From the IMG/VR virus record IMGVR_UViG_3300032304_001168: a stretch of 64,000 bases of DNA; one strand, given 5' to 3'. Numbering within the stretch: the first letter of the stretch is position 1; the number at the start of each line of letters is the position of its first letter. Below are positions 1 through 50,682 of this stretch, piece by piece. The stretch comes from a virus. The notes beneath the pieces were generated by a model, which saw only the letters and a list, made by a program, of their open reading frames with translations, searched no databases and was not told where the DNA came from. The position numbers and the translations under genes are program-made.

Positions 1-232
1 ATTCATCTTCGTCATCATCATCATATTCTAATTCCCAATTTGCTTCATTGTTTTTGTTTGTGATATATTGTTCCAATTCTTTGGCGACTTCCAAGTATTT
101 TTCTCTTAACTCGTGGAATTTTTCATCCTCTATTTCTTCGAATGAGGAGTAGTGTTTGAAACAATAATGAAACCCTTCTGCGTCCATTCTATAATGAACA
201 TTATTCCAGTTTTCCGCTTCTTCTGCTTTCAT
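1..232 (-). CDS. hypothetical protein (3' partial at window edge)
   Basis: ATG at 232, open to the edge: MKAEEAENWNNVHYRMDAEGFHYCF..., acidic. Confidence 0.6.
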   Translation of the reverse strand, partial: MKAEEAENWNNVHYRMDAEGFHYCFKHYSSFEEIEDEKFHELREKYLEVAKELEQYITNKNNEANWELEYDDDDEDE

Positions 233-286
233 AATAATTTTATTTTTTGATGAGTTAAAGATAAGAAAAAATTTTTGTATAAAAAA

Positions 287-1087
287 TTAAATAGGTAAAT
301 TTATTTTACTTAATAACTGATTTGAAACGTGTGTATAAATTTCAGTTGTTTTAACATTATTATGACCTGCAATCTTTTGAATTATTCTCAAATCCGTTCC
401 ATTTTCTAATAAATTGGTGAAACAAGAATGTCTGAGTTGATGAATATGATATTCTTTACCTAAGTATTGCTTTACAATTTTATTACAACTCCCAAAACTA
501 TATTTTAGATTATTTTGACCATTGAATAGATGGGTGATTGGTTTATATTCTTTATAATATTCTCTTAGAAGTTGTAGGATATTTTGTGATAGTGGAACAA
601 TCCTATCTTTTCTACCTTTGGCATTTTTGATATGGATAATCATTCTTTTGGAATCAATATCTTCAATTTTGAGATTGACTACTTCTGACACTCTTAGACC
701 TACTGAAAATGTTAGTGATAGTAGTGTCTTATGTTTTAGGTTTTTGATTTTGGAGAGTTGTTCTTTAATAAAATCACCATCAATAACTTTTGGAAGTTTC
801 TTTTCTGATTTAGGTCTTTTGAAACTTACTTTATCATATTTTTTATCCAATCCAAATTTATAGAGAAATCTGATTGCGTTAATGATTTGGTTTTGTTGAG
901 AAACTGAGGTGAAGTTATAGTTATCTAAATAAGATTGAAAATCTTGAGAGGTTAATCTAGTTGGTGATGTTTTATTATTTTCTAAAAACTGATTGATGTA
1001 AAAAAGATAGGACTTGATTGTCCTATCTGAGTAATTTAAGTATTTCAATTTTTGATTACAAATTTCGTAGTAATTTGTCTTTTTCAT
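287..1087 (-). CDS. tyrosine recombinase/integrase (integron-integrase-like N-terminal SAM domain, XerC/D-type catalytic domain)
   Basis: YSDRTIKSY N-terminal domain; GLRVSE, KGRKDR, HQLRH, AGHNNVKTTEIY catalytic motifs (R-K-H-R-H-Y). Confidence 0.93.
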   Translation of the reverse strand: MKKTNYYEICNQKLKYLNYSDRTIKSYLFYINQFLENNKTSPTRLTSQDFQSYLDNYNFTSVSQQNQIINAIRFLYKFGLDKKYDKVSFKRPKSEKKLPKVIDGDFIKEQLSKIKNLKHKTLLSLTFSVGLRVSEVVNLKIEDIDSKRMIIHIKNAKGRKDRIVPLSQNILQLLREYYKEYKPITHLFNGQNNLKYSFGSCNKIVKQYLGKEYHIHQLRHSCFTNLLENGTDLRIIQKIAGHNNVKTTEIYTHVSNQLLSKINLPI

Positions 1088-1120
1088 TGTCTAAATCATT
1101 AATTATCAAGGTTTTGAAAT

Positions 1121-1145
1121 AGGTGTTGATATATTCTAGTTATAC
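1121..1145 (+). other. attI-like recombination site 1
   Basis: AGGTGTtgATATATTcTAGTTATAC just upstream of the integrase ATG; same motif and spacing at 34567 and 47195. Confidence 0.7.
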
Positions 1146-1157
1146 TCAATTAAAAAA

Positions 1158-1352
1158 TTATTTTGAGTTCTTTAATATACCTTCTTGTTTTGACATCTCA
1201 ATAAACTCTTCGTCAGAATCAACTAAAAGAATTGAAAATAATCTACCTTCAACCATTTCCGTAGGAACATTTGATGTTAAATATCCTCTAACTATCTCCA
1301 TATCCCAGTGTTTTTCAATTCTTTCTTCCATCATTTGTGTTAAGTTTTTCAT
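1158..1352 (-). CDS. cassette ORF, hypothetical
   Basis: 64 aa ORF between GTTATAC (1139) and GTATAAC (1390). Confidence 0.7.
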   Translation of the reverse strand: MKNLTQMMEERIEKHWDMEIVRGYLTSNVPTEMVEGRLFSILLVDSDEEFIEMSKQEGILKNSK

Positions 1353-1389
1353 CTATTTTTTTTAATTTGTAAAATAATTTTTTAACTAA

Positions 1390-1443
1390 GTATAACAAAG
1401 AATATGTGTCATTAAAACGAACACATATTCTCAACCGTTATGT
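1390..1443 (+). repeat. attC-like site (54 bp type)
   Basis: GTATAAC-aa-AGAATATGTGT-cattaaaacga-ACACATATTCT-caacc-GTTATGT. Confidence 0.8.
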
Positions 1444-1510
1444 GTAAGTGTTTCATTCATCATTCTAATCAACATTTCGGTTGAAAATTTTTAAAGAAAA
1501 ATCCATCGCA

Positions 1511-2503
1511 CTATTTTTTAATTACTAAATAATTTTTATTTTCTTTATTTGAATATAACTCATATTTTGGGTTAGTTGAAACAAGTTCATCATTATTTGG
1601 TTTAACATCAAAATATTCATCATTTTTTTCATTATAACCCATAATTTTATATTTACCATATAACTTAACCCATAATTTTCTTGCTTCTGGTGTTTGCATT
1701 TTATCTGAATATAATATAGTTTTATTTATAATATAGTCATACGCCTTTGTCGCAACACCTAAACCCCTTGCTGTGTCTTTAACGCCAAGTGTTGATATTT
1801 TATATCCATTATGAAATTTATTTAACCCTACATAACCAATAGGTAAATCATCATTATATATAATTAATTTAACACCATCACTATTTTCAGCCCATTGAAA
1901 CCCTAGCCCAGAGAATTTATCAATTGATTTCGTTATTTTATCTGCTTCACCCTTCGCCCAATCCACAAATTCATTGTAATCAATTTTACCACCTACTAAA
2001 GAAGTGGTTCTCTTGATTTCATTAATTGGGTTATAATTTAGTGGTAATGGGTAATTACCTTGTTCCAAATTTTTAGAATCCCAAAATTCAGTTTTTAATT
2101 TTATATTATCCCAAAAATTGTTTTCTTTATCTAAAAAATTTTTAATTAAATAAATTGCCGAAATTCTATGAGCACCATCTTGTAAACTACCATCAACCAC
2201 AATTATCGGTGGTAAATTTTTTGTTGATTTTGGGTTTTTTATTATATAATTAGCATATTCTAACACCTTTTTCGTTACACCCCAACTATAATCTTTATCA
2301 ATTACATCACTTAATACCTCTCTATAATAAGGTATATTTTTTATTCTATTTGTAATTTCATCAACAGTTAGAAACTTTATATTAGTTGGTTTAGAATTTT
2401 TCTTAAATTCTGCTGGTTTTCCAGAACTTTCACCAGATTGTGGGATATTCTCATTCAAAAAATCTCTAATTGTGGTTTTAATAAATTGTTTCAAATTTTT
2501 CAT
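1511..2503 (-). CDS. cassette ORF: ParB/Srx-like domain plus GNAT-like acetyltransferase domain, with N-terminal ...FLNE leader
   Basis: LPPIIVVDGSLQDGAHRISA (ParB-like); TLGVKDTARGLGVATKAY (GNAT motif A). Confidence 0.65.
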   Translation of the reverse strand: MKNLKQFIKTTIRDFLNENIPQSGESSGKPAEFKKNSKPTNIKFLTVDEITNRIKNIPYYREVLSDVIDKDYSWGVTKKVLEYANYIIKNPKSTKNLPPIIVVDGSLQDGAHRISAIYLIKNFLDKENNFWDNIKLKTEFWDSKNLEQGNYPLPLNYNPINEIKRTTSLVGGKIDYNEFVDWAKGEADKITKSIDKFSGLGFQWAENSDGVKLIIYNDDLPIGYVGLNKFHNGYKISTLGVKDTARGLGVATKAYDYIINKTILYSDKMQTPEARKLWVKLYGKYKIMGYNEKNDEYFDVKPNNDELVSTNPKYELYSNKENKNYLVIKK

Positions 2504-2613
2504 TGTTTTCTTTTATATAAATATTAAGATTTAAAAAAACCACACTTCTTTTTCTTTTAAATTTTTTGTTTAGTTCTTCGATTAAACATTCTACCTTAAT
2601 TAACCACACCTAC

Positions 2614-2707
2614 ACATAACAAGGTGTATAAGAAAGTTTGCTATAAAGTTTAGTGGTAATTTGAAAGTTCATCTAAGCAAACCTTCTCATACACCCAAAC
2701 GTTATAC
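2614..2707 (+). repeat. attC-like site (94 bp type, near-identical to 49314-49407)
   Basis: ACATAAC-aa-GGTGTATaAGAAaGTTTGCT...AGCAAACcTTCTcATACACC-caaac-GTTATAC. Confidence 0.8.
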
Positions 2708-2713
2708 ACAATA

Positions 2714-2926
2714 TTACGCAACCTCTTCAACAGTTACACCAATCAAAGGATATAATCTAACCATATCAGCAAATTGAGCGTGGTTTACATTCTCAATGTT
2801 TTCACCTACTTGTAATTTAAGTCTACTCAACCTATTAAATGTTGGTGTTGAATTTAATCGTTTTAGTATTTGTTCGTTGGGTATTGTAATTTTTACAGTT
2901 TTAATATTCCTAATTTTATCAATCAT
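2714..2926 (-). CDS. hypothetical protein (distal unit of array 1, no intact attC of its own)
   Basis: 70 aa ORF; only a lone GTATAAC at 2948 follows it. Confidence 0.65.
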   Translation of the reverse strand: MIDKIRNIKTVKITIPNEQILKRLNSTPTFNRLSRLKLQVGENIENVNHAQFADMVRLYPLIGVTVEEVA

Positions 2927-2989
2927 TTCTTTGTAATGTTAATAATAGTATAACCAATCAAACAACCATAAAGTTCCAAGTTTATAATT

Positions 2990-3562
2990 TTATTTTCTAC
3001 CACGAGCTCTTTGGATTTTATATTCCCCAAACGCTTCATTTATTGCAAATGGTATTGGTTCATTATTTTCTTGATGATTCCATTTAGGGTATTTATTTTC
3101 TATTTGAAAATATTGTTTCATAAACACCTCTTCTATACCCTTAGCACTTATTGGAACATAAATTATCTCATTATTGGTTAGTCCTGGTACTTTTACTTCA
3201 ATCAAATCCATATAAACCATATAAACTTCAACTTTGTTTCCTTTATCTAATTCTTCTCTGATTAATAAATTAATGAAAAATCTATTGATACCAGGGTCAT
3301 CTTGACCTGACTTGAGATAAAAATTCATACATCCAGAAATACCATTTTTCGCGGAAGATTGACCAATTTTATAAATTATATTATTGATTACAAATAGATA
3401 AACCAAAGCCAAATGTTCGTTTTTAAGATGTTTGGGGAAATTTTCATCATAGATGAGTTTCAAAGCATTTCTATGTAAGACATAAGAATTACCCTTAAAA
3501 TCAGTTTCTCCTAAAACAATCTGACCAACTCTAATACAATTTTTTGCGATTGTTATATTCAT
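2990..3562 (-). CDS. GIY-YIG nuclease, Hpy188I-like restriction endonuclease family
   Basis: LVYLFVINNIIYKIGQS GIY-YIG hairpin, NRFF...KVEVY, conserved Glu helix, 190 aa. Confidence 0.6.
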   Translation of the reverse strand: MNITIAKNCIRVGQIVLGETDFKGNSYVLHRNALKLIYDENFPKHLKNEHLALVYLFVINNIIYKIGQSSAKNGISGCMNFYLKSGQDDPGINRFFINLLIREELDKGNKVEVYMVYMDLIEVKVPGLTNNEIIYVPISAKGIEEVFMKQYFQIENKYPKWNHQENNEPIPFAINEAFGEYKIQRARGRK

Positions 3563-3618
3563 TATATTATATATTTAAGATTACAAATCTAAAAATAATG
3601 ATAAAATTTTATAAAAAC

Positions 3619-3654
3619 AAAAAAACTCCAATAATTTTTACAATTATCGGAGTT
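3619..3654 (-). terminator. intrinsic terminator
   Basis: AACTCCgATAATTg-taaa-AATTATtGGAGTT followed by a T-run on the minus strand. Confidence 0.65.
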
Positions 3655-3718
3655 CTATATATTGACCAACATAAGAAAGGGAAGTTGGGGATTTGTGAAA
3701 TATAAATATATCGAATTT

Positions 3719-4105
3719 TCAAAAAATCTTATTTATTATAAAAAAAAGTTGATTTTCTACCTTTTTGGGTAAAGTTTTTTTGGTAAACCACTTACACTCC
3801 TCGTGTTCATGCCCATCTTGAGCCTCATCCAAATCAATATTTATCTTTTTATCAATCTCATATAAGAACAAATAGAATTTCATTCTTGACCCACCACTTA
3901 ATGTCGCCACATAATCCAAGTTATCAACAATCTGATATCCAGTTTCTTCCCTAAACTCCCTTATAGCACCATCTTGAATATTCTCGTCTTTCTCCAAATG
4001 TCCTCCAGGAACTGACCAAATACCAGGTAAACTCCCTTTCTGACTTCTTTTGCATAATAAACAATGATTTTTATATTTTAATAAAATACCTGCACAATTT
4101 CCCAT
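3719..4105 (-). CDS. NUDIX hydrolase
   Basis: GGHLEKDENIQDGAIREFREETG Nudix box. Confidence 0.9.
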   Translation of the reverse strand: MGNCAGILLKYKNHCLLCKRSQKGSLPGIWSVPGGHLEKDENIQDGAIREFREETGYQIVDNLDYVATLSGGSRMKFYLFLYEIDKKINIDLDEAQDGHEHEECKWFTKKTLPKKVENQLFFIINKIF

Positions 4106-4131
4106 AATGAATTATTATTATATTTATATAT

Positions 4132-4479
4132 ATGAAGTTAAGTATAAATGACAACATTTTCAAGGTTAAAGTTCAAACATCTCCTGAAGAAACTCAAAAA
4201 GGTATGATGAACAAAACCTTTGACAAAACATTCAATGGAATGTTATTTGTTATGAAAAACCAAGACCATTGTTTTTGGATGAAAAATTGTATTATTCCAT
4301 TGGATATCATATTCATTGATAATGATGTAATAACCAAAATACACCACAATTGTCCTCCTTGTGAAACTAAGAATTGTAAATCATATTGTGGTGAAGGAAA
4401 CTTTATACTTGAAGTTAGAGGTGGAACTTGTAAGAAATTAGACATAAAAAAGGGGGATGTTGTTTCTTTCCCCCTTTAA
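4132..4479 (+). CDS. DUF192 family protein
   Basis: KGMM...GMLF...FWMKNCIIPLDIIFID...ILEVRGG. Confidence 0.85.
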   Translation: MKLSINDNIFKVKVQTSPEETQKGMMNKTFDKTFNGMLFVMKNQDHCFWMKNCIIPLDIIFIDNDVITKIHHNCPPCETKNCKSYCGEGNFILEVRGGTCKKLDIKKGDVVSFPL

Positions 4480-4481
4480 TC

Positions 4482-6152
4482 TTAACCTTTTATTGTTTTA
4501 TTTATCAAATTTCTAAAATAGTTTTCATTAACATTTTCACTTTGTATCATTTGAATTAATTTAGCCTTAAATGATTCTGCAATTCGTTTAACAAATGCAA
4601 CATATGGTGTTTCATCTTTCTTAACACCAAACGGATTATATTTGGTTATTTTAACAACAATACCATCTTCAACTTTGACAACTCTTCTCATTGTATCAAT
4701 ATAGTATAAACCATTGTCCAAAGGTTGTTTTTTCCCTCGTTTCATTTTAAATAACGAAGCATTAAGTTCTATATTTTCAATAATTAAATCATTAATATCA
4801 ACTTTAATAATCTTATCTTCATCATCAGTTTTTCTAGGGGCTTTTTGTTCTTTTTTTGGTGGTCTTTTAGACCTAACCAAATAATTTAAACCTGAAATAT
4901 TGGTTATACATTTATGTCCACCACTATTTCTAAGTACAATATTCCAACCACTTATAAAAATATTATCTAATATTTCTTTTTCTTCGTCAGATAATTTATC
5001 AAAATGTTGATTCATTATATTTTGTAATTCCTTTTCACTTACATCTTCATCTTGGATTACATAATCATTACCATACAATGCTTTTAAATCTCTATATGTG
5101 AAACCAATTGATTCTTCAGTAAACCCTGGGTCACTTTCCGAAATCCATTTTAAAGATGATAGACTAACTTTAATATTTTTAAGTTCAGTTTCAAATTCAC
5201 TCAATACTTCATCTTTGACTTCACCTAAATTAACACCTTTCAATGCTCTATCTGTCTTAAATGGATTACAAGATACTTGAACCATCCCCATTGGAAATGC
5301 TGTTATTAAGAAATCACCCTCTGGATTATTAATGAATGGGGTATATCTATCATAAGAACCTTTTTTTCCAATATAACCTAATCCATATTGGAAGATAATT
5401 TTATCTTCAACATCAATGTCTTTATCTGTTTTTCTATTTTCAATATAATCAATTTGATTTTGTAATAATTCTTCAGATTTTTCATCAAAACTACCACCAA
5501 TTAATTCTTTTATTTTCAAATAAAGATTTATTGCGGATGGGGTACAGTCCAATACTAATGTTTCCAAAAATTTATCCTTACTTTTGAATGTCAATAACCA
5601 TTTATTAACAATAAACATAAGCATAAATCTATTCTTAGTACTAGAATTTCTAAAATTAAAGTTTAGAATATCTTGTGGTGTAATATTATATCTAATAAAA
5701 TCCGCACTATCAATTGTTGATATTGCTAAAATATCAGTTCCATAAAATAAATCGTTTGGGGATATTACATCAGATACTGTTTTGACATTTGACCTTGAAT
5801 GCGAAAATTGTTTTGATTTGGTGAATTCTGCCCCAGCTTGTGTATCGTGGTGGTCGGTATGAATTAAAAACATAGGTTTACCATGTGCAAAATCTACCAA
5901 TACCGGCATAATTTCACCACTAGCATCTGGTTTCTTAACCGCAAATTCTGATGTTCCATATTGTATAACTTCGGCATCTACTATTTCAATCCCATATCTT
6001 TCCAAATATTTTTTCATGGCTAAAGCCGTAGTAACCCCATCTAGTCAAAGGTCCTGATGAAAGTAGATCTTCGCTTTTTTGTAACGAAGTGCAAGAGAAT
6101 TAATATCTCTTATTCCACTTTCAATCAGGACTATTTTTTGTTTTTTAGTCAT
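4482..6152 (-). CDS. DHH-family phosphoesterase-like protein; in-frame TGA at 6045-6047 inside the N-terminal motif
   Basis: Upstream in-frame segment MTKKQK...IYFHQDL*LDGVTTALA joins ORF 4482-6017; motifs VDFAH, TDHH, IDSAD, GGH. Confidence 0.7.
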
Positions 6153-6211
6153 GTTTTATTTTTTTATTAATAAATATCATATAAAAATAAAATAAGGGTC
6201 ATACCTGACTT

Positions 6212-7033
6212 TTATTTGATATTTTTAAAAATATGTGTTATAACATCTATAGTCCACCCATTCCCAAGTAATTTAAACCTTTCGGTGTTTGAAACTCCTC
6301 TAGTATAATTTAATGGCATTGTTTGTAATAGTTCACAATCTTGTGGTGTATATTTGTATATCTGACCTAATTCATTTTTACAATAAGATGAAATCTGTCC
6401 TTTATACATTGATGCTGTTAAACAAGATGCTTTATCACTATATGACTTAACAACATCCTTTCTTGTTCCCCTACCATAAAAAGGTAAATCTAAATAGTTT
6501 GGATATTTGTCCTTAAATTCTGGAGAGATAATATCACAAATATTTAATCCCAAGTCTTTTGGTTGTGTTATATTTGGGATATTTGTCCAATATAACCTTG
6601 GTCTATTTTGAGCTGAAACCAATCTACTATTAATCTTAATCGGTTTGACACCAAGGTGTTCAGTGATTACATCTTGCCATTCTTCTCTCATTACAACATT
6701 CTCCAATAAAAAATATTTTGGTTTAACTTCTTTTAATAGTCTAACATACTCAAAGAATAATTTACTCCTTGGGTCATTGAAATTCAATTGTTTCCCTACC
6801 TTTGAAAATCCTTGGCAAGGCGACCCACCTATGAGAAGGTCTATTGGTGGTAAATCACTTCCTTTAATTTCTGTTATATCACCCAATTGAATTGTGTTGG
6901 GATAATTTTGTTGTGTAACCTTAATTGAACTTTTATCAATCTCGGATGCAAAATACTTATCATATTTTATTCTAATTCTATTTAGGGCAATTTGACCACA
7001 ACTTAACCCATCAAAAAGACTTAATACATTCAT
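6212..7033 (-). CDS. dcm: DNA (cytosine-5) methyltransferase
   Basis: SLFDG, GGSPCQ, LLENV, QNRPR, GNGW motifs. Confidence 0.93.
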   Translation of the reverse strand: MNVLSLFDGLSCGQIALNRIRIKYDKYFASEIDKSSIKVTQQNYPNTIQLGDITEIKGSDLPPIDLLIGGSPCQGFSKVGKQLNFNDPRSKLFFEYVRLLKEVKPKYFLLENVVMREEWQDVITEHLGVKPIKINSRLVSAQNRPRLYWTNIPNITQPKDLGLNICDIISPEFKDKYPNYLDLPFYGRGTRKDVVKSYSDKASCLTASMYKGQISSYCKNELGQIYKYTPQDCELLQTMPLNYTRGVSNTERFKLLGNGWTIDVITHIFKNIK

Positions 7034-7851
7034 AATTTAATATTTTTAAAAATATGTGCAATTACATCAACAGTCCAACCATTGCCAATCATTTTGTATC
7101 TTTCTGTGTTACTAACAACAGATGTATACCCTTCTGGTATTGTCTGTAATTTCTCAAATTCAGTTGGGTTTAATAATCTACATAAAGTTTTATCCTCGTT
7201 GAAGAGATATTGATTTGTGTGACAATTCTTGGTGGTTAAACAATTTGATTTCTCATTCTTAACCCAATTAGGATTTTTATTTATTCTTTCTTTTGTTCCC
7301 CATTTATTATAAAAACATTTTGGTATTTCTCTAAACTTGTCATCAGTTAATACATCAGATAGTTTAATCTTCTTATCTTCAGGTTGGGTTATGTTTGGAA
7401 TGTTTGTCCAATATAATCTGTCCCTATTTTGACCAGATACTAGATTACTATTAATTCTTATAGGTTCAACACCCATTTCCTTTGTGATGATGTCTTCCCA
7501 TTCTTTTTTCATCTTTACATTTTCAAGTAAAAAATATTTGGGCTGAACTTCATTTAGGACTCTAACAAATTCCCAAAATAAACCACTCTTTCCATCAAAA
7601 CCTGTTCTGTTACCTGCTGATGAAAAACTTTGACAAGGACTCCCACCAAATAAGATATCTATTTTTGGTAAATCAGAACCTTTGATATTATTAATATTAC
7701 CTAACTGAATCGTGTTAGGATAGTTGTGTTGAGTTACTTTAATTGCGTGAACATCAATCTCAGAAGCATAATAGTTATCGTAACTAATCCCAACTTTATT
7801 TAAAGCGATTTGGCCACAACTTAACCCATCAAACAAACTCAGTACATTCAT
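7030..7851 (-). CDS. dcm: DNA (cytosine-5) methyltransferase
   Basis: SLFDG, GGSPCQ, LLENV, QNRDR, GNGW motifs. Confidence 0.93.
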   Translation of the reverse strand: MNVLSLFDGLSCGQIALNKVGISYDNYYASEIDVHAIKVTQHNYPNTIQLGNINNIKGSDLPKIDILFGGSPCQSFSSAGNRTGFDGKSGLFWEFVRVLNEVQPKYFLLENVKMKKEWEDIITKEMGVEPIRINSNLVSGQNRDRLYWTNIPNITQPEDKKIKLSDVLTDDKFREIPKCFYNKWGTKERINKNPNWVKNEKSNCLTTKNCHTNQYLFNEDKTLCRLLNPTEFEKLQTIPEGYTSVVSNTERYKMIGNGWTVDVIAHIFKNIKL

Positions 7852-32157: not shown

Positions 32158-34527
32158 TTATTGTTTTACACTACTAATATTGTTTTCTTTAGATATTTTA
32201 ACCACGTTGTCCGCCCAATTACTTACAAGTGGATTATGGGTGATGACAAATATCTTTTCAAAATAGTTCTTGATTTTAATAAAAAATTCACCAACCATAT
32301 CCAAGTTCTCATTTGATATCTTTCCAAACACCTCGTCAAACACCACCAGGTTGGGTTTTGGTAATGAACTAATCTTACTTAACACCGCTCTCAATGCTAA
32401 TGATGCTATGGTTCTCTCATAACCCGATCCTGATGACATAAGTTTCTCAACCTGGGTATTATTATCAATCATCAAAAATTCAACCTCATTCTTATCATTA
32501 ATATTAATCTCCAATCTAAAATGACAACTATCTTCCAGCAACCTCTGTAACTCAGAATTCAACATTGGAATCATTGTTTTCATTATTGTCTTAGATATTC
32601 CATTCTTTCCAAAGATTTCCAAATATAACTTATATATTTTTTCCTTTTCAGATTCTTCCTTTATTTTTTCAATTTTTTGAAGATTATCTTTAATCTTATC
32701 TTTTAAACTATCAATTTGATAATTGTTAGAATCAATGATTCTCTGTACAGATACTTTTTCTCTATCCAATTCATCAATTCTCAGATTGGCTTTGATAAGT
32801 TGGGTTTCAATTTTGTTATTGGTGGATATTTTATCTTGTAACAAATTGAATTTTTCCAACTTATCTTCCAACCCTTTGATTTTCATCTCATAACCCTCAA
32901 TTGTAAGTTCATATTTTTCTTTGATAAGTTTGTTTTTCTCATACTCATCAAATTCTTTTTTCAATAGAACATACTTAGCTTCTCTGACTATTATATTAGA
33001 CATTAACCCCTCAAATTCAACTTTTTGACTATTATAATAGTCAAGTTCTGCTATCTTGTTTTGAGTTATTGATGCGGTTATTAATTCAATTCCACAATGT
33101 TCACATTTAATTCCCCCATCAACTGAAGACTTTAATTCTTCAATCGAATTGATTGTTTGTTCAACTTGAACAATCTTTTTATAGTATAGTTTGTGTTCAT
33201 CTTTTATCCAGTCGTGTTCTTGTTCCGAGTAAAACTCTGTAGGTTCAACTACTTTGAGTTCTTTTAATTGTCTTTCAACACTTTGTTTTTGGGTTTTTAT
33301 TCCCATAATTTCACTTTCAATACGTTCAGGAACAATATTGGAGATTTCAACATCAATATCCGTGTGTTTGGATTTTAATAATCCATCTCTATATTCTTGT
33401 CCTTTGATTATTCTGTTTTGAACATCAATAAGATTGTTTTGTTGGGTTATATTATCTGTTGTTAATTCTTGGATTCTTGAATTATAACCATCATTATCTG
33501 ATTTCAATTTCTCACTGGAATATACATTTGACAACATTGATTTTGAGAAGTCAGAATATATTTCTTTTGCAAGTTCTTCTTTCTTTTTGAGAAAGTCTAA
33601 CCCCATAAATTTTGATAATACTTGACCTCTTGCTGTTGGTTTGGAGTCAATCAAATCTTCAAGATTTGTTGCTGTTGTTAAGATTGTCATCAAGAAATCA
33701 TCTTTTGTTCCAATTGATGTTTTGATGAAATTCTCTGTTTCCCTCCTTTGTTCACCAGTAAAGTTTTGTAATGACCCATCGGATAATTTCTTATAAAAAT
33801 CCAATTCGGTTTTTACATTCCAAGTATCATCTTTCTTCTTCTTTCTTTCAATGTTTCTAATGATTACATATTCTTCCCCATCAATGATAATTTCACCTTT
33901 GACGTGGACTTTATCTTGAGTTGAGAATCTATTAAAAATTTCTTCAGCTTTTGTTGTCTTGGTGGTTTCATTGAAGAATAGGAATAACAATAGGTCAACG
34001 GTTAAAACTGTTTTCCCACCAAAATTTGCTGGATCTGATTCAACCACAGATATTCCATTACATTTTTCAAAATCTATTTTTTGATTTTGTCCATAAGATA
34101 AGAAATTGGAGAATTCAATATTTTTGATATACCATTTTTTGAATGGGGTAATATCTTCATCTGTCAATAATCTATTATCAACAATTCTATCTAGATTAAA
34201 GATTTCATCAGATAATTGATTTTGATTTTTGGAATCGAGATATGATTTAACCAATTCATATTGATAATTTTTATCCAAGATATTAAAGGAAACATCAACC
34301 GAGTGATTGGTTGTTTCTGTTATTTTTGTTTTGGTAATTACATTAACATTGGTTGAATTGTATTTTTTTTGGAAGTAATGTTTGATGCTCTTTATTTTTT
34401 CTTGTGTAAAGTTTTCAGCATAATCTTCCCATATTACCTGGATGTATGGATTATCAAACTTGGTAAAATCTATATCTTTAATCATATAATTGTAATTGTA
34501 TTCTATTGGTGGATTGAATAAATCCAT
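32158..34527 (-). CDS. sbcC: SbcC/Rad50 (gp46-like) recombination ATPase
   Basis: NFLSYG, NFGGKT Walker A, CEHC hook, SGSGYE signature, FDEVFG, ITH. Confidence 0.92.
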   Translation of the reverse strand: MDLFNPPIEYNYNYMIKDIDFTKFDNPYIQVIWEDYAENFTQEKIKSIKHYFQKKYNSTNVNVITKTKITETTNHSVDVSFNILDKNYQYELVKSYLDSKNQNQLSDEIFNLDRIVDNRLLTDEDITPFKKWYIKNIEFSNFLSYGQNQKIDFEKCNGISVVESDPANFGGKTVLTVDLLLFLFFNETTKTTKAEEIFNRFSTQDKVHVKGEIIIDGEEYVIIRNIERKKKKDDTWNVKTELDFYKKLSDGSLQNFTGEQRRETENFIKTSIGTKDDFLMTILTTATNLEDLIDSKPTARGQVLSKFMGLDFLKKKEELAKEIYSDFSKSMLSNVYSSEKLKSDNDGYNSRIQELTTDNITQQNNLIDVQNRIIKGQEYRDGLLKSKHTDIDVEISNIVPERIESEIMGIKTQKQSVERQLKELKVVEPTEFYSEQEHDWIKDEHKLYYKKIVQVEQTINSIEELKSSVDGGIKCEHCGIELITASITQNKIAELDYYNSQKVEFEGLMSNIIVREAKYVLLKKEFDEYEKNKLIKEKYELTIEGYEMKIKGLEDKLEKFNLLQDKISTNNKIETQLIKANLRIDELDREKVSVQRIIDSNNYQIDSLKDKIKDNLQKIEKIKEESEKEKIYKLYLEIFGKNGISKTIMKTMIPMLNSELQRLLEDSCHFRLEININDKNEVEFLMIDNNTQVEKLMSSGSGYERTIASLALRAVLSKISSLPKPNLVVFDEVFGKISNENLDMVGEFFIKIKNYFEKIFVITHNPLVSNWADNVVKISKENNISSVKQ

Positions 34528-34566: not shown

Positions 34567-34591
34567 AGGTGTGTATATATTTTAGTTATGT
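34567..34591 (+). other. attI-like site 2 (no adjacent integrase)
   Basis: AGGTGTgtATATATTtTAGTTATGT, same spacing as 1121 and 47195. Confidence 0.6.
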
Positions 34592-34608
34592 GTAATAAAA
34601 AACTAAAA

Positions 34609-34830
34609 TTAAACTACCTCAACTTTATACAGTGTTCTATTACCTAAAATTTCTTTTGAAAAACTTTTAATCACATCATTATTTTTGTGTGAAATAGTTT
34701 CCACATCTGAATTATTCTTAAATTCTTCTAATGTTTTACTTAACCTGTTAAAGTAGATTTGTTCCCACAAAAATATACCAGTCCATTGTAAGTTTTTCAA
34801 AATAAAATCTGTTAATTTAGTTCTTTTCAT
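34609..34830 (-). CDS. cassette ORF, hypothetical
   Basis: 73 aa inside the cassette. Confidence 0.6.
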   Translation of the reverse strand: MKRTKLTDFILKNLQWTGIFLWEQIYFNRLSKTLEEFKNNSDVETISHKNNDVIKSFSKEILGNRTLYKVEVV

Positions 34831-34848
34831 ATTGTTTAATTTTTAAAA

Positions 34849-35064
34849 TTATTTACCATATCTACTATTAACAAAAACTCTATTAGCTCCCGTTGTAAGT
34901 GATAATTGATTTTGTTGCTTCATCAATAGTTCAAATTGATTTTCTATTCTTAACCTGTCTGAATTACTTTTTAACATATTAATCAATTTATCCAACTCCA
35001 TATCTCTTTTTGAAGTTAGAAAACCAATTTGTTCCTTGTAATGTAGTTCGAGTTTTTGTTCCAT
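34849..35064 (-). CDS. cassette ORF, hypothetical
   Basis: 71 aa inside the cassette. Confidence 0.6.
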   Translation of the reverse strand: MEQKLELHYKEQIGFLTSKRDMELDKLINMLKSNSDRLRIENQFELLMKQQNQLSLTTGANRVFVNSRYGK

Positions 35065-35093
35065 TTGTATAATTTTTTAGTTTTTTTACATAC

Positions 35094-35178
35094 ACATAAC
35101 AACAAATATAAGAAATAAATTTTGATTTATCTATTTTTTATAGGTAAAATTTACTTCTCATATTTGCAACCGTTAGCG
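35094..35178 (+). repeat. attC-like site (85 bp)
   Basis: ACATAAC-aa-CAAATATaAGAA...TTCTcATATTTG-caacc-GTTAGCG. Confidence 0.75.
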
Positions 35179-46898: not shown

Positions 46899-47134
46899 TT
46901 CAGTTTTTGTTTTGATTTAATAATATTCACCAATTCTTCTTTTATTTCGTTTTGAATATCCTCATCAATATTTCCCCACCAACCATCAAAACCACCTCTA
47001 TCACATAGAGCATCAATAATTTCATTTACAATTTCTTTTTCCATTTTATTTATTTTTTTCTTCCATCAAATACAACAATCATACTAAATCAGAGAAGTGA
47101 CAGATTGTTTTTATCATTTCAGTTTTTGTTTTGA
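46866..47134 (+). repeat. 50-bp direct repeat (46866-46915 and 47085-47134) containing the sbcD start
   Basis: TAAATCAGAGAAGTGACAGATTGTTTTTATCATTTCAGTTTTTGTTTTGA present twice. Confidence 0.9.
46895..47044 (-). CDS. small hypothetical protein (49 aa, not in ORF track)
   Basis: MEKEIVNEIIDALCDRGGFDGWWGNIDEDIQNEIKEEL...; ATGA-coupled to sbcD. Confidence 0.6.
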   Translation of the reverse strand: MEKEIVNEIIDALCDRGGFDGWWGNIDEDIQNEIKEELVNIIKSKQKLK

Positions 47135-47154
47135 ATTTCGTAATAGTTTCCCAT
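47134..47154 (-). pseudogene. remnant of integrase 5' end
   Basis: MGNYYEI versus MKKTNYYEI of 287-1087, with homologous upstream DNA. Confidence 0.65.
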
Positions 47155-47194: not shown

Positions 47195-47219
47195 AGGTGT
47201 TGATATATTATAGTTATAC
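47195..47219 (+). other. attI-like site 3
   Basis: AGGTGTTGATATATTATAGTTATAC, one mismatch to 1121-1145. Confidence 0.75.
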
Positions 47220-47231
47220 TCAATTAAAAAA

Positions 47232-47378
47232 TTATTTTGAGTTATATAATATATTCCATTCAGTATATGTATTTGATAATAATTCTTCTATTGTAATCCC
47301 AAATCTTATACAATCACCTAAACATATTTTGTAAAAATTCACACTTCTTTCGTTTATTATATATTCTGAAAATGTCAT
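47232..47378 (-). CDS. cassette ORF, hypothetical (48 aa, not in ORF track)
   Basis: MTFSEYIINERSVNFYKICLG...ILYNSK*. Confidence 0.6.
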   Translation of the reverse strand: MTFSEYIINERSVNFYKICLGDCIRFGITIEELLSNTYTEWNILYNSK

Positions 47379-47416
47379 ATTTGTATTTTTAATTTGTAAA
47401 ATAATTTTTTAACTAA

Positions 47417-47470
47417 GTATAACAAAGTGTAAAAAACATTAAAACTATTTTTTACACTCAACCGTTATGT
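47417..47470 (+). repeat. attC-like site (54 bp type)
   Basis: GTATAAC-aa-AGTGTAAAAAA-cattaaaacta-TTTTTTACACT-caacc-GTTATGT. Confidence 0.8.
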
Positions 47471-47474
47471 GTAA

Positions 47475-47792
47475 TTAAACAGAGAAACCCTCGTTAATCA
47501 AATATTTTGTTATTGAATGATGGTTGCTCAATGGTCTGTGTTCAATTGAAATATGTCCTTTGTTGTTTTTCCAAGTCCAAGTATGGTCAACTTCTAATTC
47601 TGAATTTACAGATAAACCATATTCAATTGTATGATAGTTATCAGATACAACACAATCTTCTACTTTAAATACAGCAATAATAAAATCTTTTTCAGGTGTC
47701 CATTCAACTTTACCAGCATTACAAGGTTTTCCGATAATCAAAGAGTATATCTGATTAATGTTTTCTATTGTTAAATCTTTTATCGTTTTCAT
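47475..47792 (-). CDS. cassette ORF, hypothetical
   Basis: MKTIKDLTIEN...; start chosen downstream of the attC-borne promoter. Confidence 0.65.
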   Translation of the reverse strand: MKTIKDLTIENINQIYSLIIGKPCNAGKVEWTPEKDFIIAVFKVEDCVVSDNYHTIEYGLSVNSELEVDHTWTWKNNKGHISIEHRPLSNHHSITKYLINEGFSV

Positions 47793-47816
47793 AAATTTTT
47801 CGTTTAAATTAACTAC

Positions 47817-47910
47817 ACATAACAAGGTGTATATGTAATTTTTTTACAAAGGTACGAATAAGTTTTGACATTTCCAAATAAAAAACTACATATACACCCA
47901 TACGTTATAA
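47817..47910 (+). repeat. attC-like site with internal promoter
   Basis: ACATAAC-aa-GGTGTATATGTA...TACATATACACC-catac-GTTATAA. Confidence 0.8.
47847..47878 (-). promoter_or_regulatory. Bacteroidota promoter inside attC loop
   Basis: TTTG-N20-TACCTTTG. Confidence 0.75.
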
Positions 47911-47922
47911 GCAATATTATTT

Positions 47923-48165
47923 TTATTTTGAGTATCTATTTTTAAAATCCTCAAATGCTTCTAAAATTGTGTTTCCCACACCATAGTTCACATGTTCCCA
48001 TTCTTCTTTCATAAAGTGATGTGGGTCATATTGCCACTCTTCGTTTCCTTCAAGTGAGTTTACACAATCAGCATCACAACATGTTTCTACAATAGCAAAT
48101 TTACCGTGTCTCATGTGAACTATGGTCATTGGGTAAATGTCTTCAATTTTGTTTATATTCTTCAT
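47923..48165 (-). CDS. cassette ORF, hypothetical
   Basis: 80 aa between cassette inverted repeats. Confidence 0.65.
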   Translation of the reverse strand: MKNINKIEDIYPMTIVHMRHGKFAIVETCCDADCVNSLEGNEEWQYDPHHFMKEEWEHVNYGVGNTILEAFEDFKNRYSK

Positions 48166-48207
48166 AATTTTAAGTTTTTTAAATCGGTAAAATAAAAATA
48201 ATACAGC

Positions 48208-48261
48208 TTATAACAACAAATATATTGCATTAAAACGACAATATATTTGCAACCGTTATGT
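48208..48261 (+). repeat. attC-like site (54 bp type)
   Basis: TTATAAC-aa-CAAATATATTG-cattaaaacga-CAATATATTTG-caacc-GTTATGT. Confidence 0.8.
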
Positions 48262-48278
48262 GTAATAAAAAATAACTA

Positions 48279-48482
48279 TCAAACCTCGTTTCCATCATCA
48301 AAGATTGTAAAACACGATTTGTCTGATAAAGTCACCTTATATCCAACATATCCACCATCTGCAAAAATGTGCAAGTCTGTTATCCATTCATCAGTTGCAC
48401 CTTTTTCATCTAATTTGCTTTGTATTTTCACTCTTGCTGCATCGTGTTTTACAAAGTCTAATGTTATTCTATTTGCCCACAT
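48279..48482 (-). CDS. cassette ORF, hypothetical
   Basis: 67 aa between cassette inverted repeats. Confidence 0.65.
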   Translation of the reverse strand: MWANRITLDFVKHDAARVKIQSKLDEKGATDEWITDLHIFADGGYVGYKVTLSDKSCFTIFDDGNEV

Positions 48483-48517
48483 ATTATTAAGTTTAGTTTA
48501 AGTTATTTTTTACATAC

Positions 48518-48610
48518 ACATAACAAGGTGTATATGTAATTTTTTACAAAAGTACGAATAAGTTTTGACATTTCCAAATAAAAAACTACATATACACCCA
48601 ACCGTTAGCA
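48518..48610 (+). repeat. attC-like site with internal promoter (near-identical to 47817-47910)
   Basis: same stem; loop contains minus-strand TTTG-N20-TACTTTTG at 48547-48578. Confidence 0.8.
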
Positions 48611-48634
48611 CCAATACTACGAAAGTGCTTCGAT

Positions 48635-49252
48635 TTAAATTTCGTTTGGATTTTCATAGATTATTACTGGGATTTTTTTAATTTTTAATCTTTTTGCAGC
48701 TTCCCATCTATGATGTCCATCTAATATACCAAAATCATAATCAAGTAATATTGGTGGTAATTCATCACCATTTTTTAATTTCTTAATTATGTTCAATATA
48801 TTTTGTTCTTCTTGTTTTTCAGTTCCATATATTCTCGAATCATTGGTATCAATATATTTCAATTTACTCAAATATCTCCCAATCTCAATACCTCTCGTAT
48901 CACTCCACAAATATTTTTGTTTATTAACCAAATCTGTGTCAGTATTATACACCAAATCTGGTTTCTTTTCTTTTGGTTGTTTTAATTTTGGTTCAATTTT
49001 TATACCTTTTTTGGTTTCAACAAAATTGAAAAGATTTATAATATCACTTGGATTATCTTCACCAAATATTTTGCTAAATTGTTTATTATTATGCTCAACG
49101 GCACGATTCACATCATTGTATGCAGTCTCCAAATCTTTATAGTATCTATCTTTAAAAGATGAATACCACCCATACATTTTTTTTACATCTAAATCTTGGC
49201 TTTCATTAAGATATTCTCTTATTGTAGTTGCTATAAATTTTCTCAATTCCAT
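48635..49252 (-). CDS. cassette ORF: ParB/Srx-like domain protein with ...YLNE leader
   Basis: LPPILLD...ILDGHHRWEAAKRL...IPVI. Confidence 0.75.
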   Translation of the reverse strand: MELRKFIATTIREYLNESQDLDVKKMYGWYSSFKDRYYKDLETAYNDVNRAVEHNNKQFSKIFGEDNPSDIINLFNFVETKKGIKIEPKLKQPKEKKPDLVYNTDTDLVNKQKYLWSDTRGIEIGRYLSKLKYIDTNDSRIYGTEKQEEQNILNIIKKLKNGDELPPILLDYDFGILDGHHRWEAAKRLKIKKIPVIIYENPNEI

Positions 49253-49313
49253 GTTCTTTTACTTTATATATAAATATTCCAAAATTAAATTTTTGCTAAA
49301 CAAACCGTACTGG

Positions 49314-49407
49314 TGCTAACAAGGTGTATAAGAAAGTTTGCTATCAATATTTGTGGTAATTTGAGAGTTCATCTAAGCAAACCTTCTAATACACCCAACC
49401 GTTAGCA
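49314..49407 (+). repeat. attC-like site (94 bp type)
   Basis: TGCTAAC-aa-GGTGTAT...ATACACC-caacc-GTTAGCA. Confidence 0.8.
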
Positions 49408-49419
49408 GTAATATTGTGG

Positions 49420-49659
49420 CTACTTCCCAATTGGTCTATTACAAGTTGCACAGATATAACTACCATTCATTAAATAACATTGAGATTGCTGACAGCCACA
49501 ATACATACTGCTAACATCGGCTATACGCAAGTTTTTTGCTTCCGTTAGTCGGTTAATAACATTGTTTGCCTCTATCAACATTTCAATCAATTTGTCTTTT
49601 TCTATCATTTGATACATCTCTACTTTTTCAGAGTGTGTCATTTCAATTACTTGCATCAT
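49420..49659 (-). CDS. cassette ORF starting inside its attC loop; C-terminal Cys-rich zinc finger
   Basis: KNLRIADVSS encoded by the attC arm; CGC...CATC. Confidence 0.65.
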   Translation of the reverse strand: MMQVIEMTHSEKVEMYQMIEKDKLIEMLIEANNVINRLTEAKNLRIADVSSMYCGCQQSQCYLMNGSYICATCNRPIGK

Positions 49660-49722
49660 ATATTTTAATTTTAGTGTTTCAAATTCGCAAAAAACCTGAC
49701 GTATAGCCGAGAACCGTTATAG
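49509..49722 (+). repeat. attC-like site with long coding loop (214 bp)
   Basis: TGCTAAC-a-TCGGCTATACG-CAAGTTTTTTGC...GCAAAAAACCTG-a-CGTATAGCCGA-gaacc-GTTATAG. Confidence 0.75.
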
Positions 49723-49980
49723 ATAATAAGCATCCAACACACTTTCAATATAACCTATTGATATGTGTATTTTAACTAAATCATCATATGTTTTTATACG
49801 TTCAAAAAATTCCTCTTTATTCAACCACTCCACATAGAAACCACCTTCATGTAAATTCATACAATATCCATCATATTCCGTATAAAAACTATCTAACAGC
49901 TTACTATCTATAACATCAGATATATGTAATTTTTCATTACTCTTATCTAAGTTTTGTTCTAAATTTTTATCTTCTTTCAT
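49717..49980 (-). CDS. cassette ORF starting inside its attC loop
   Basis: KLHISDVIDS encoded by the attC arm; stop codon in the GTTA core. Confidence 0.65.
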   Translation of the reverse strand: MKEDKNLEQNLDKSNEKLHISDVIDSKLLDSFYTEYDGYCMNLHEGGFYVEWLNKEEFFERIKTYDDLVKIHISIGYIESVLDAYYL

Positions 49981-50027
49981 CTTATTAAATTTTGTGTTAA
50001 AACTACATATATCTGTAACCGTTATAA
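49908..50027 (+). repeat. attC-like site with coding loop (120 bp)
   Basis: CTATAAC-at-CAGATATATGTA...TACATATATCTG-taacc-GTTATAA. Confidence 0.8.
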
Positions 50028-50031
50028 AACA

Positions 50032-50682
50032 TTATAAACGACCACCCCACTCAAATCTAACATATTCAACTTTAAAATCAACATCGTAAATCTCTTTTAG
50101 TAAATTTACAGCATATTGTTCATAACTACAATTCTTATCATATTCTAAACGATGTTGATTATCGTTTACTTCCATTGTCATATGTTCACCTTCGAAACTA
50201 TGACTTTCAATAAATTTGATTTCCATATTTTTAATTTTTCTTCCATCAAATACAACAATCATACTATCTTTTGTACCACTTTGTACTTTACCCTTTGAAT
50301 TTACAGGATAATAAAAATTACCATCATTGTCAACTTTCCCAAATTTAATCCTCCCCCTTACAAATTCAATTTCAGTCGCATTTGGTTTAATATAATCGTG
50401 AAATAACTTTGTGGAGGTGGAAACTGGTATCAAAAATACACAAACTTTTCCCTTCTTCATCTCCTCAATCCCTTTCTTAATAAAGGCCTCCTTTAACTTC
50501 TGACTATATGGGGGATTTATGAAAGTTGACATCCCCCATTCAATATTTAAACCATCAATATCAACATCCTTTTCATTATATGGACAAGGGTCAAAATCAA
50601 ATTTAAACCTCTTATTTAACTCCTCATAAAATTCTGGGGGTGTTGCATAATTATCATCATTATTAATGTGAATCTTTTTCAT
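50032..50682 (-). CDS. phage DNA N6-adenine methyltransferase (Dam-like), apparently fused to a downstream small ORF
   Basis: YATP, FDFDPC, FINPPYS, LIPVST, RGRIKF; extra MEIKFIES... tail. Confidence 0.85.
   Translation of the reverse strand: MKKIHINNDDNYATPPEFYEELNKRFKFDFDPCPYNEKDVDIDGLNIEWGMSTFINPPYSQKLKEAFIKKGIEEMKKGKVCVFLIPVSTSTKLFHDYIKPNATEIEFVRGRIKFGKVDNDGNFYYPVNSKGKVQSGTKDSMIVVFDGRKIKNMEIKFIESHSFEGEHMTMEVNDNQHRLEYDKNCSYEQYAVNLLKEIYDVDFKVEYVRFEWGGRL

Follow-up and report, generated by a model that had tools for sequence, protein, structure and literature searches.

Integrons are viewed as platforms of bacteria and, more recently, of archaea. In their classical form (the integrase IntI, the docking site attI and the cassette sites attC, which are homogeneous in the sedentary chromosomal integrons), the integrase gene is transcribed away from the adjacent attI, each of the tandem cassettes ends in an imperfect palindrome that has AAC/GTT cores and a central spacer left unpaired, the stems are kept in structure and not in sequence with the bottom strand folding better, the start of a cassette complements its end as in a circle opened at G|TT, and most of the cargo has no known function. 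These features recur in a module that we describe here from the viral record IMGVR_UViG_3300032304_001168, of which the whole 64 kb stretch, hereafter the window, was analyzed. The module comprises a tyrosine recombinase gene (int, product Int) and three attI-like sites, each followed by an array of small open reading frames (ORFs) and attC-like hairpins. Comparison with related viral contigs makes it highly probable that the module is a phage-borne analogue of the integron, in which a small Xer-type recombinase inserts and excises circular one-gene cassettes at G|TTA.

The module also departs from the classical integron. The phage enzyme has 266 aa, is Xer-like, lacks the I2 insertion and scores below the IntI cut-off; polarity is set in integrons by extrahelical bases together with the I2 helix of IntI, whereas in the phage sites fixed A·C/G·T positions probably take over this role; and the R box measures 7 there and ~12–15 bp in the phage sites. 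In addition, the phage cassette genes are inverted, with the hairpin on their 5′ side often carrying a promoter or start codon and no common promoter Pc, and several attI arrays lie in one phage genome. Integron fragments and clusters of attC sites without an integrase (CALINs) have been described in phages, where bacterial-type attC sites were detected by IntegronFinder, mostly two per phage, and tested with IntI1, and where complete integrons were confined to prophage or P1-type contexts (Qi et al. 2023, PMC9892861). Like the present arrays, those fragments place attC-type sites and cassettes in phage DNA and include orphan DNA methyltransferases in their cargo, but the present lineage has a recombinase family, an attI and a hairpin family of its own, and arrays of up to 16 sites. 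The PeSL cassettes of T4-type phages (PMC2839356, PMC4122927) likewise consist of small accessory ORFs in hyperplastic regions with conserved stem-loops carrying expression signals; their shuffling, however, is ascribed to motif recombination, and they have no dedicated recombinase, docking site or start–end complementarity. The Xer recombinases (archaeal XerA, XerC/D, XerH) give the best sequence and fold matches to Int and share its two-domain "simple" build without an arm-binding domain, whereas Xer/dif serves dimer resolution at one double-stranded dif per replicon and the phage system has dozens of variable-arm hairpin sites in arrays. Xer/dif dimer resolution, which uses a single dif with two conserved ~11-bp arms around a 6–8-bp spacer, does not match the window, where ten hairpin and three attI sites with variable arms occur in 64 kb. 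A full-text search of the literature found no description of this phage system. What is new is a whole large-phage lineage with its own recombinase, docking site and hairpin family, where the earlier phage reports concern stray bacterial-type attC sites.

The first-pass annotation, made from the letters of the window, had placed a tyrosine recombinase so that it points away from a 25-bp site at 1121–1145 and had seen that site recur at 34567 and 47195, and both statements were borne out. Int is encoded at 287..1087 (−) as a 266-aa Xer-like tyrosine recombinase (Pfam PF00589, 5.7e-34; PF13495, 1.3e-13), and 34 nt separate its start codon from the 21-bp attI-like motif AGGTGTnnATATATTnTAGTT, so that the attI-like site is directly upstream and int is transcribed away from it. 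Exactly three copies of the motif exist in the window, all exact and on the + strand, at 1121, 34567 and 47195, against 0.03 matches expected from shuffled sequences. The sites extend over 1121..1145 (GTTA at 1139–1142) for array 1, 34567..34591 for array 2, immediately ahead of the SbcC-like gene 32158..34527 (−), and 47195..47219 (GTTA at 47213–47216) for array 3. Arrays 2 and 3 have no adjoining integrase gene; the array 3 attI is adjoined by an 11-codon stub of an integrase N-terminus (47115..47154, −; MGNYYEIQNKN and a stop).

Hairpin sites were scanned with a strict rule, TAAC...GTTA with at least 9 of 10 Watson–Crick pairs in the adjoining stem, taking the opposite strand as the control, and 10 sites were found on the + strand of the window and 0 on the − strand. 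A covariance model of the 48-nt site class, a check that had been suggested for the hairpins, recovers only the three short window sites and the long-loop classes are beyond its reach, which is why the rule-based scanner was used. All ten TAAC...GTTA palindromes of the first-pass annotation exist, although the one it had put at 49509 is no short hairpin but a 208-nt site (49512–49719) whose loop contains the start of ORF 49420..49659. Array 1 holds two cassettes: cassette 1 (1140..1437, +) with ORF 1158..1352 (−, 64 aa) and a 48-nt attC-like site at 1393–1440, its start GTTA-TACT pairing with its end AGTA-TAAC, and cassette 2 (1438..2701, +) with ORF 1511..2503 (−, 330 aa) and an 88-nt attC-like site at 2617–2704. 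The single cassette of array 2 (34586..35172, +) contains ORFs 34609..34830 and 34849..35064 (both −) and an attC-like site at 35097–35175. Array 3 (47214..50021, +) consists of seven cassettes with one minus-strand ORF each; cassettes 1 to 7 end with the G at 47464, 47904, 48255, 48604, 49401, 49716 and 50021, carry attC-like sites at 47420–47467, 47820–47907, 48211–48258, 48521–48607, 49317–49404, 49512–49719 (208 nt) and 49911–50024, and encode 48, 105/116, 80, 67, 205, 79 and 87 aa, respectively. Beyond each window array, neither matching inverse cores nor further attI-like sites were found.

The units of these arrays are delimited by a simple boundary rule: the 4 bases that follow GTTA in a site recur as their reverse complement just before the TAAC of the next one. 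The rule holds at 10 of 10 window junctions, including the one between attI and the opening hairpin of each of the three arrays. Every architectural feature of the proposed int-attI-(ORF-attC)n arrangement is present in the window. In relatives (68 loci), 147 of 200 consecutive pairs are perfect over the 4 nt, against 4% by random pairing, whereas within single sites the tail complements the head in only 9 of 261 cases. The complementarity of the cassette ends extends a median of 11 nt past GTTA, and a consensus could be drawn for both ends (start, GTTA-nnnn-YA-A-T; end, A-C-TR-nnnn-TAAC), in which position +7 of the cassette start is A in 130 of 130 cassettes and faces C in 93 of these 130. 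Because of this end-complementarity, a cassette unit resembles a circle with one complete hairpin that has been opened at G|TTA. The polarity of the arrays is the classical one, the first site being GTTA-only and the last a complete hairpin, and on these grounds the crossover would lie in the right-hand core, as in classical integrons.

The hairpin sites have a common layout on the + strand, consisting of a 4-nt head, TAAC, a 1–2-nt spacer (A/AA), stem-loop-stem, a 4–5-nt spacer (mostly xAACC), GTTA and a 4-nt tail, and a length difference of ~3 nt between these spacers is maintained in nearly all members of a set of 216 distinct sites, drawn from the window and related contigs. Their lengths fall into classes of 48, ~80–90 and ~120–130 nt, with a tail to ~290 nt, and 103 distinct 8-nt stem starts occur among the 216 sites with complementarity maintained. 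The 48-nt class, comprising 20 sites in five stem families around the constant loop CATTAAAACGA, was used to quantify pairing: 99.7% of cells are paired, compared with 30–48% in slid controls, and compensatory, two-sided changes occur at 9 of 11 stem pairs. The same is seen within the window, where the first cassettes of arrays 1 and 3 have the attI, both cassette ends and the hairpin loop and cores in common while the 11-bp stems of their hairpins differ at 7 positions, on both arms. Like attC sites, they are imperfect palindromes whose cores read AAC/GTT, whose central spacer stays unpaired and which are conserved at the level of structure.

The two strands of the sites are not equivalent. 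When loci were oriented by int, 254 hairpin sites lay on the strand opposite to int and 12 on the same strand. Internal stem mismatches number 221. In 185 of them an A of the 5′ arm faces a C of the 3′ arm on the + strand, and these cluster at stem positions ~7–8 and ~12–13; the reverse arrangement, C·A, was counted 3 times and G·T/T·G 11 times. The bottom (gene) strand can hence form a continuous hairpin with G·T wobbles, while the top strand carries A·C mismatches, including R box position +7. No extrahelical bases were found in the attC-like stems, which are continuous. The fixed A·C/G·T positions are probably a polarity device that makes the bottom strand the better folder. That the missing wobble of the 48-nt class marks a DNA-level structure was considered and rejected, as the long classes have fixed G·T on the gene strand.

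Int consists of an N-terminal SAM-like and a catalytic domain, and the catalytic residues R132, K157/K160, H216, R219, H242 and Y251 are invariant among 26 relatives. Of the NCBIfam models, XerA_Arch gave the best score (179 bits, below its cut-off of 220), whereas the IntI model TIGR02249 gave 154 bits (cut-off 265) with the match split into two stretches, and NF011946 gave 93 bits (cut-off 435). In the control genomes, no IntI above the cut-off was present. The IntI-specific insertion (I2 helix) is missing: in an alignment with VchIntIA (2a3v), 33 residues stand against 81, and the AlphaFold (AF2) model of Int (pLDDT 85.5) has only a 16-residue loop at the place of I2, between H168-181 and H198-209. 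In Foldseek, XerA (5hxy) ranked top with VchIntIA about equal, and a sequence match to 4a8e was obtained at 3.2e-39. By these model scores, the missing I2, the AF2 loop and the Foldseek ranks, Int belongs by sequence and predicted fold in the Xer/IntI neighbourhood and is not an IntI. The insertion has been described as essential for integron function and as the basis of single-strand recombination (PMC8138268, PMC7790495), and its acquisition as the step that let integron integrases go from double-strand to single-strand DNA recombination (PMC7790495). Since these papers call the insertion essential, the association of an I2-less enzyme with attC-like hairpins is the most surprising element of the system.

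Cassette replacement was observed between close relatives. At array 2, the contig UViG_3300036770_002726 is 95–98% identical to the window on both sides with unrelated DNA between; identity stops after the attI GTTATGT and resumes at G|TTAGCGG, in the right flank GTTAGCGG, and in that contig this right flank is joined to an attI-like site rather than to an attC hairpin. At array 3, UViG_3300042691_014512 matches the window up to attI and then carries different cassettes. The flanks of relatives with replaced array 2 or array 3 content are 93–98% identical, and int genes that are 80–87% identical have neighbouring arrays without a common cassette. Conversely, one cassette was found in two divergent phages, at array positions 10 and 3, with 89% nucleotide and 95% protein identity, the identity ending at the right GTTA. 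The first-pass annotation had taken a lack of variation among relatives as speaking against a cassette system; in the relatives compared, cassette content differs and breakpoints lie at attI and, for array 2, at the last GTTA as well. Two further observations were made on relatives. In UViG_3300036770_002726, the reverse complement of ~2893–3186 is a ~290-nt hairpin site with a complete 75-aa ORF in its loop and ATTA, not GTTA, as right core, and it is followed by a second attI-like copy that is joined directly to GTTAGCGG. In a 90–92% identical relative, L080 (47194–47697), int, attI, the two cassettes and the 70-aa ORF 2714..2926 are absent and two other small ORFs are present instead.

The window itself is phage-like: it has 27% GC with uniform skew, nearly all genes are co-stranded up to 53 kb, a virion structural protein is encoded (phrog_1645, 3e-143; ~65% identity to marine phage proteins), and further genes include SbcC-like, SbcD-like, phage-type Dam and NUDIX proteins and many ORFans; no tRNA genes were found in it. 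Its relatives are IMG/VR viral contigs, and the contig is not the host-chromosome chimera that had been considered at first reading. Relatives of Int with 39–86% identity were found in 63 IMG/VR loci, many on contigs of 100–465 kb, and a search of a large protein collection gave more than 120 clusters with 77% identity or more, nearly all of 266 aa and named only as "XerD" variants. Up to 16 hairpin sites lie within 8 kb upstream of the relatives' int, and nearly all of the 32 relatives that were inspected, with identities as low as ~40%, have the attI core TT(T/A)ATATAT(A/T)nTAGTTA(T/G) 30–60 nt ahead of int. The int-attI-array module is kept across recombinases of 41–86% identity with intact catalytic residues. 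In a 276-kb relative (IMGVR_UViG_3300020048_006428), one int accompanies two arrays that start at attI-like sites, one beside int and the other 50 kb away, which together contain 15 of the 22 sites of that strand. This contig is classed as a provirus in IMG/VR, and its GC is flat at ~25% along the whole length.

Among cells, searched with one genome per species over 185,579 prokaryote species, relatives of Int were found on seven contigs only, nearly all of Bacteroidota, and no arrays were found in up to 8 kb upstream at these seven. The hosts of the phages would be Bacteroidota, judging from the promoter type and the seven cellular matches to the recombinase. The nearest integrases in deposited phage genomes are those of Cellulophaga phage Ingeline (40%) and Polaribacter phage Freya (37%), and no hairpin arrays were detected by the scanner in either. 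It was also observed that the records Polaribacter phage Freya_1 to Freya_10 (Freya_10, MT732472.1) differ by up to 4.9 kb, that the Freya integrase (37% identity) moves between them from 83 to 4180, where it follows a series of small ORFs in a common orientation, and that GGGTGTTAGCAACAAT upstream of int is common to Freya and Cellulophaga phage Ingeline_1.

All cassette ORFs of the window lie on the minus strand, and each hairpin is therefore upstream of its gene. Of the 147 cassettes that obey the boundary rule, 140 have their longest ORF antisense to the sites, and the median coding fraction is 72% on the gene strand versus 20% on the other. With 140 of 147 inverted, the hairpin is 5′ of the gene, the genes run toward attI and int, and no common Pc can drive them; promoterless cassettes that are co-oriented with their sites and expressed from Pc were thus not what was found. 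In the ~120-nt class, the loop contains an ATG in 79 of 96 sites, with the frame reading through arm and core, and leaders such as MKDLKHIKRFNESEENLNISDV, arising from loop starts, are common to unrelated cassette proteins; in the window, ORFs 49420..49659 and 49717..49980 start in loops. A full TTTG-N20-TAnnTTTG promoter lies in the loop of the window sites 47820 and 48521, while the other ~88-nt loops have a different conserved motif in common. A promoter in every loop was considered and rejected, the strict TTTG-N17-22-TAnnTTTG being present in 9 of 191 long sites versus 5 on the control strand.

The cassette proteins of the window are ORFans except for two ParB-like ones, one of which (ORF 1511..2503, with a ParB-like motif) has a weak GNAT match. 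More was learned from a Pfam survey of 120 distinct cassette proteins of relatives. A homologue of Tad6, the type I Thoeris inhibitor, was identified at 4.6e-41 in IMGVR_UViG_3300033068_000668 (6211–6843, +), between the sites 6856–7145 and 6034–6159, and the cassette next to it encodes an MT-A70 DNA methylase. The relatives' cargo includes three orphan DNA methyltransferases (of the N6_N4, D12 and MT-A70 types), which like Tad6 sit in rule-conforming cassettes, as well as a dual-specificity phosphatase, YopX, DUF551, DUF4326 and DUF7448. The remaining cassette proteins of the relatives have no Pfam match, which leaves ~95% of cassettes without a known family. The arrays appear to stockpile accessory and counter-defence genes. 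The N-terminal leaders MKNLKQFIKTTIRDFLNE and MELRKFIATTIREYLNE of the two ParB-like proteins, encoded at 1511–2503 (−) and 48635–49252 (−) in different arrays, are alike; we take them to resemble the short leaders with a terminal (L/I)xE that target T4 internal proteins to the capsid, a pattern that only some window cassette proteins fit.

From this anatomy, a mechanism can be proposed in which Int would bind attI as double-stranded DNA and a hairpin site in the form of its folded bottom strand. The R box would be formed by TAAC/GTTA and ~8–11 further paired bases in the circular form, the L box by the first turn of the covarying stem, and the central region by the asymmetric 3-nt bulge (A/AA opposite xAACC), the loop being free to vary. 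Strand exchange would occur at G|TTA, either between attI and a hairpin or between two hairpins; a circular cassette would integrate at attI and excision would take place between two hairpins, as in integrons. Cassette genes would be expressed from signals in or upstream of their own hairpin, with no common Pc. One int probably serves several arrays in trans, which fits the one int with three arrays of the window and the one int with two arrays of the 276-kb relative.

Several observations weigh against this integron-like interpretation. Its support consists of comparative sequence analysis throughout, from which we infer catalysis by Int, single-strand folding, the circles and action in trans, and Int is without the I2 insertion that the papers cited above call essential for integron function. 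The right breakpoint of array 3 lies ~190 bp past the last hairpin and is flanked by ordinary direct repeats, and because this breakpoint is off-site and repeat-flanked, homologous recombination must be counted among the forces that shape these loci. The gene order of array 3 is identical in three contigs, as judged by exact-protein look-ups with two proteins (one of the contigs an ENA scaffold), with no variation at that depth; the int genes of 80–87% identity lie in otherwise unalignable surroundings; and the int module (~251–2940) is itself an indel between close relatives. Finally, the G·T-bearing strand is the mRNA strand, and the hairpins may have an RNA-level role, instead or in addition; since the bottom strand and the mRNA strand coincide, the asymmetry fits an added role of this kind equally well.

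In a rival view, the stem-loops between the small genes are of the PeSL kind and regulate at the RNA or DNA level, as promoters, terminators or processing signals; genes are shuffled by homologous recombination between these repeats, and Int, for example a lysogeny integrase, is unrelated to them. The hairpins do lie upstream of ORFs on the transcribed strand, where the wobbles become G·U in mRNA, two window loops hold a full promoter, 79 of 96 ~120-nt sites an ATG and leader, PeSL shuffling is documented (PMC2839356, PMC4122927), and ordinary direct repeats flank array 3. However, homology between repeats would not make the start of a unit complement its own end over ~11–15 nt and yet differ from its neighbours, and this view explains neither the invariant TAAC/GTTA cores nor the GTTA-only first site, nor why nearly all of the 32 relatives inspected have that site strictly linked to the start codon of int. 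Moreover, the 48-nt class has no promoter, start codon or wobble and still covaries perfectly, and the strict Bacteroidota promoter is present in only 9 of 191 long sites versus 5 in the control; we consider this view very unlikely.

That the phage took up fragments of a host (Bacteroidota) cassette array on which Int no longer acts would agree with the integron fragments and integrase-less attC clusters reported in phages (PMC9892861), with the Int relatives encoded on seven cellular contigs, nearly all Bacteroidota, and with the provirus label of the 276-kb relative in IMG/VR. Against it stand 63 viral versus 7 cellular loci, the latter without arrays in up to 8 kb upstream, the maintenance of the int-attI-array module at 41–86% identity with intact catalytic residues, the match of cassette GC and gene orientation to the phage backbone with uniform GC over the 276-kb relative, and the phage-type cargo (Tad6, orphan methylases, YopX, DUF551), and a cellular relic is accordingly rated very unlikely. 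The cassette ends are formally also terminal inverted repeats, and each ORF might be a mini-element with repeats of 12–15 bp (GTTAnnnnYAAT ... ACTRnnnnTAAC) moved into palindromic hairpins by an enzyme other than Int; arrays 2 and 3 indeed have no adjacent integrase, and array 3 has in its vicinity a gene whose product shows a weak TnsA-like domain. Yet no transposase family was found linked to the arrays, while recombinase and attI are linked in the relatives examined, an int stub is retained at the array 3 attI, and tandem insertion in a single orientation at one docking site is how site-specific recombination behaves, which makes such mini-elements highly improbable. No rival can explain at once why the cassette ends are complementary, why a one-sided docking site goes with the int start codon in nearly all relatives inspected, why there is only one orientation and why the distribution is viral.

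The phage-borne integron analogue can be put in a bolder form, for and against which we see the chances as evenly balanced: an I2-less Xer-type enzyme would perform integron-style recombination of folded hairpins with the strand chosen by G·T wobbles, as an independent invention or a surviving early integron, and would provide large Bacteroidota phages with a swappable counter-defence store. The pairing of an I2-less enzyme with attC-like hairpins makes the origin of single-strand integron recombination directly testable. With exact cassette boundaries and a cargo of Tad6 and methylases, the unassigned cassettes form a candidate list for counter-defence and host-takeover genes, and the arrays, if this is true, would mirror, on the viral side, the chromosomal integrons in which bacteria keep defence systems. 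Genome engineering might also profit from a recombinase so compact, with hairpin sites so small.

Minor observations concern the surroundings of array 3, which is framed by the direct repeats 46868–46914/47087–47135 and 47056–47087/50236–50266. The start of the SbcD-like gene (MIKTICHFSD...) is duplicated in one of these pairs, and a C-terminal fragment of the Dam gene (...SMIVVFDGRK) in the other. Ordinary recombination seems to have inserted or duplicated the whole block of stub, attI and array 3. In the Dam-like ORF 50032–50682 (−), PF05869 covers residues 7–157 and is followed by a C-terminal extension of ~60 aa that is not kept in UViG_3300042691_014512; this extension may be a fused gene, a separate small gene or a decayed cassette past the last hairpin.

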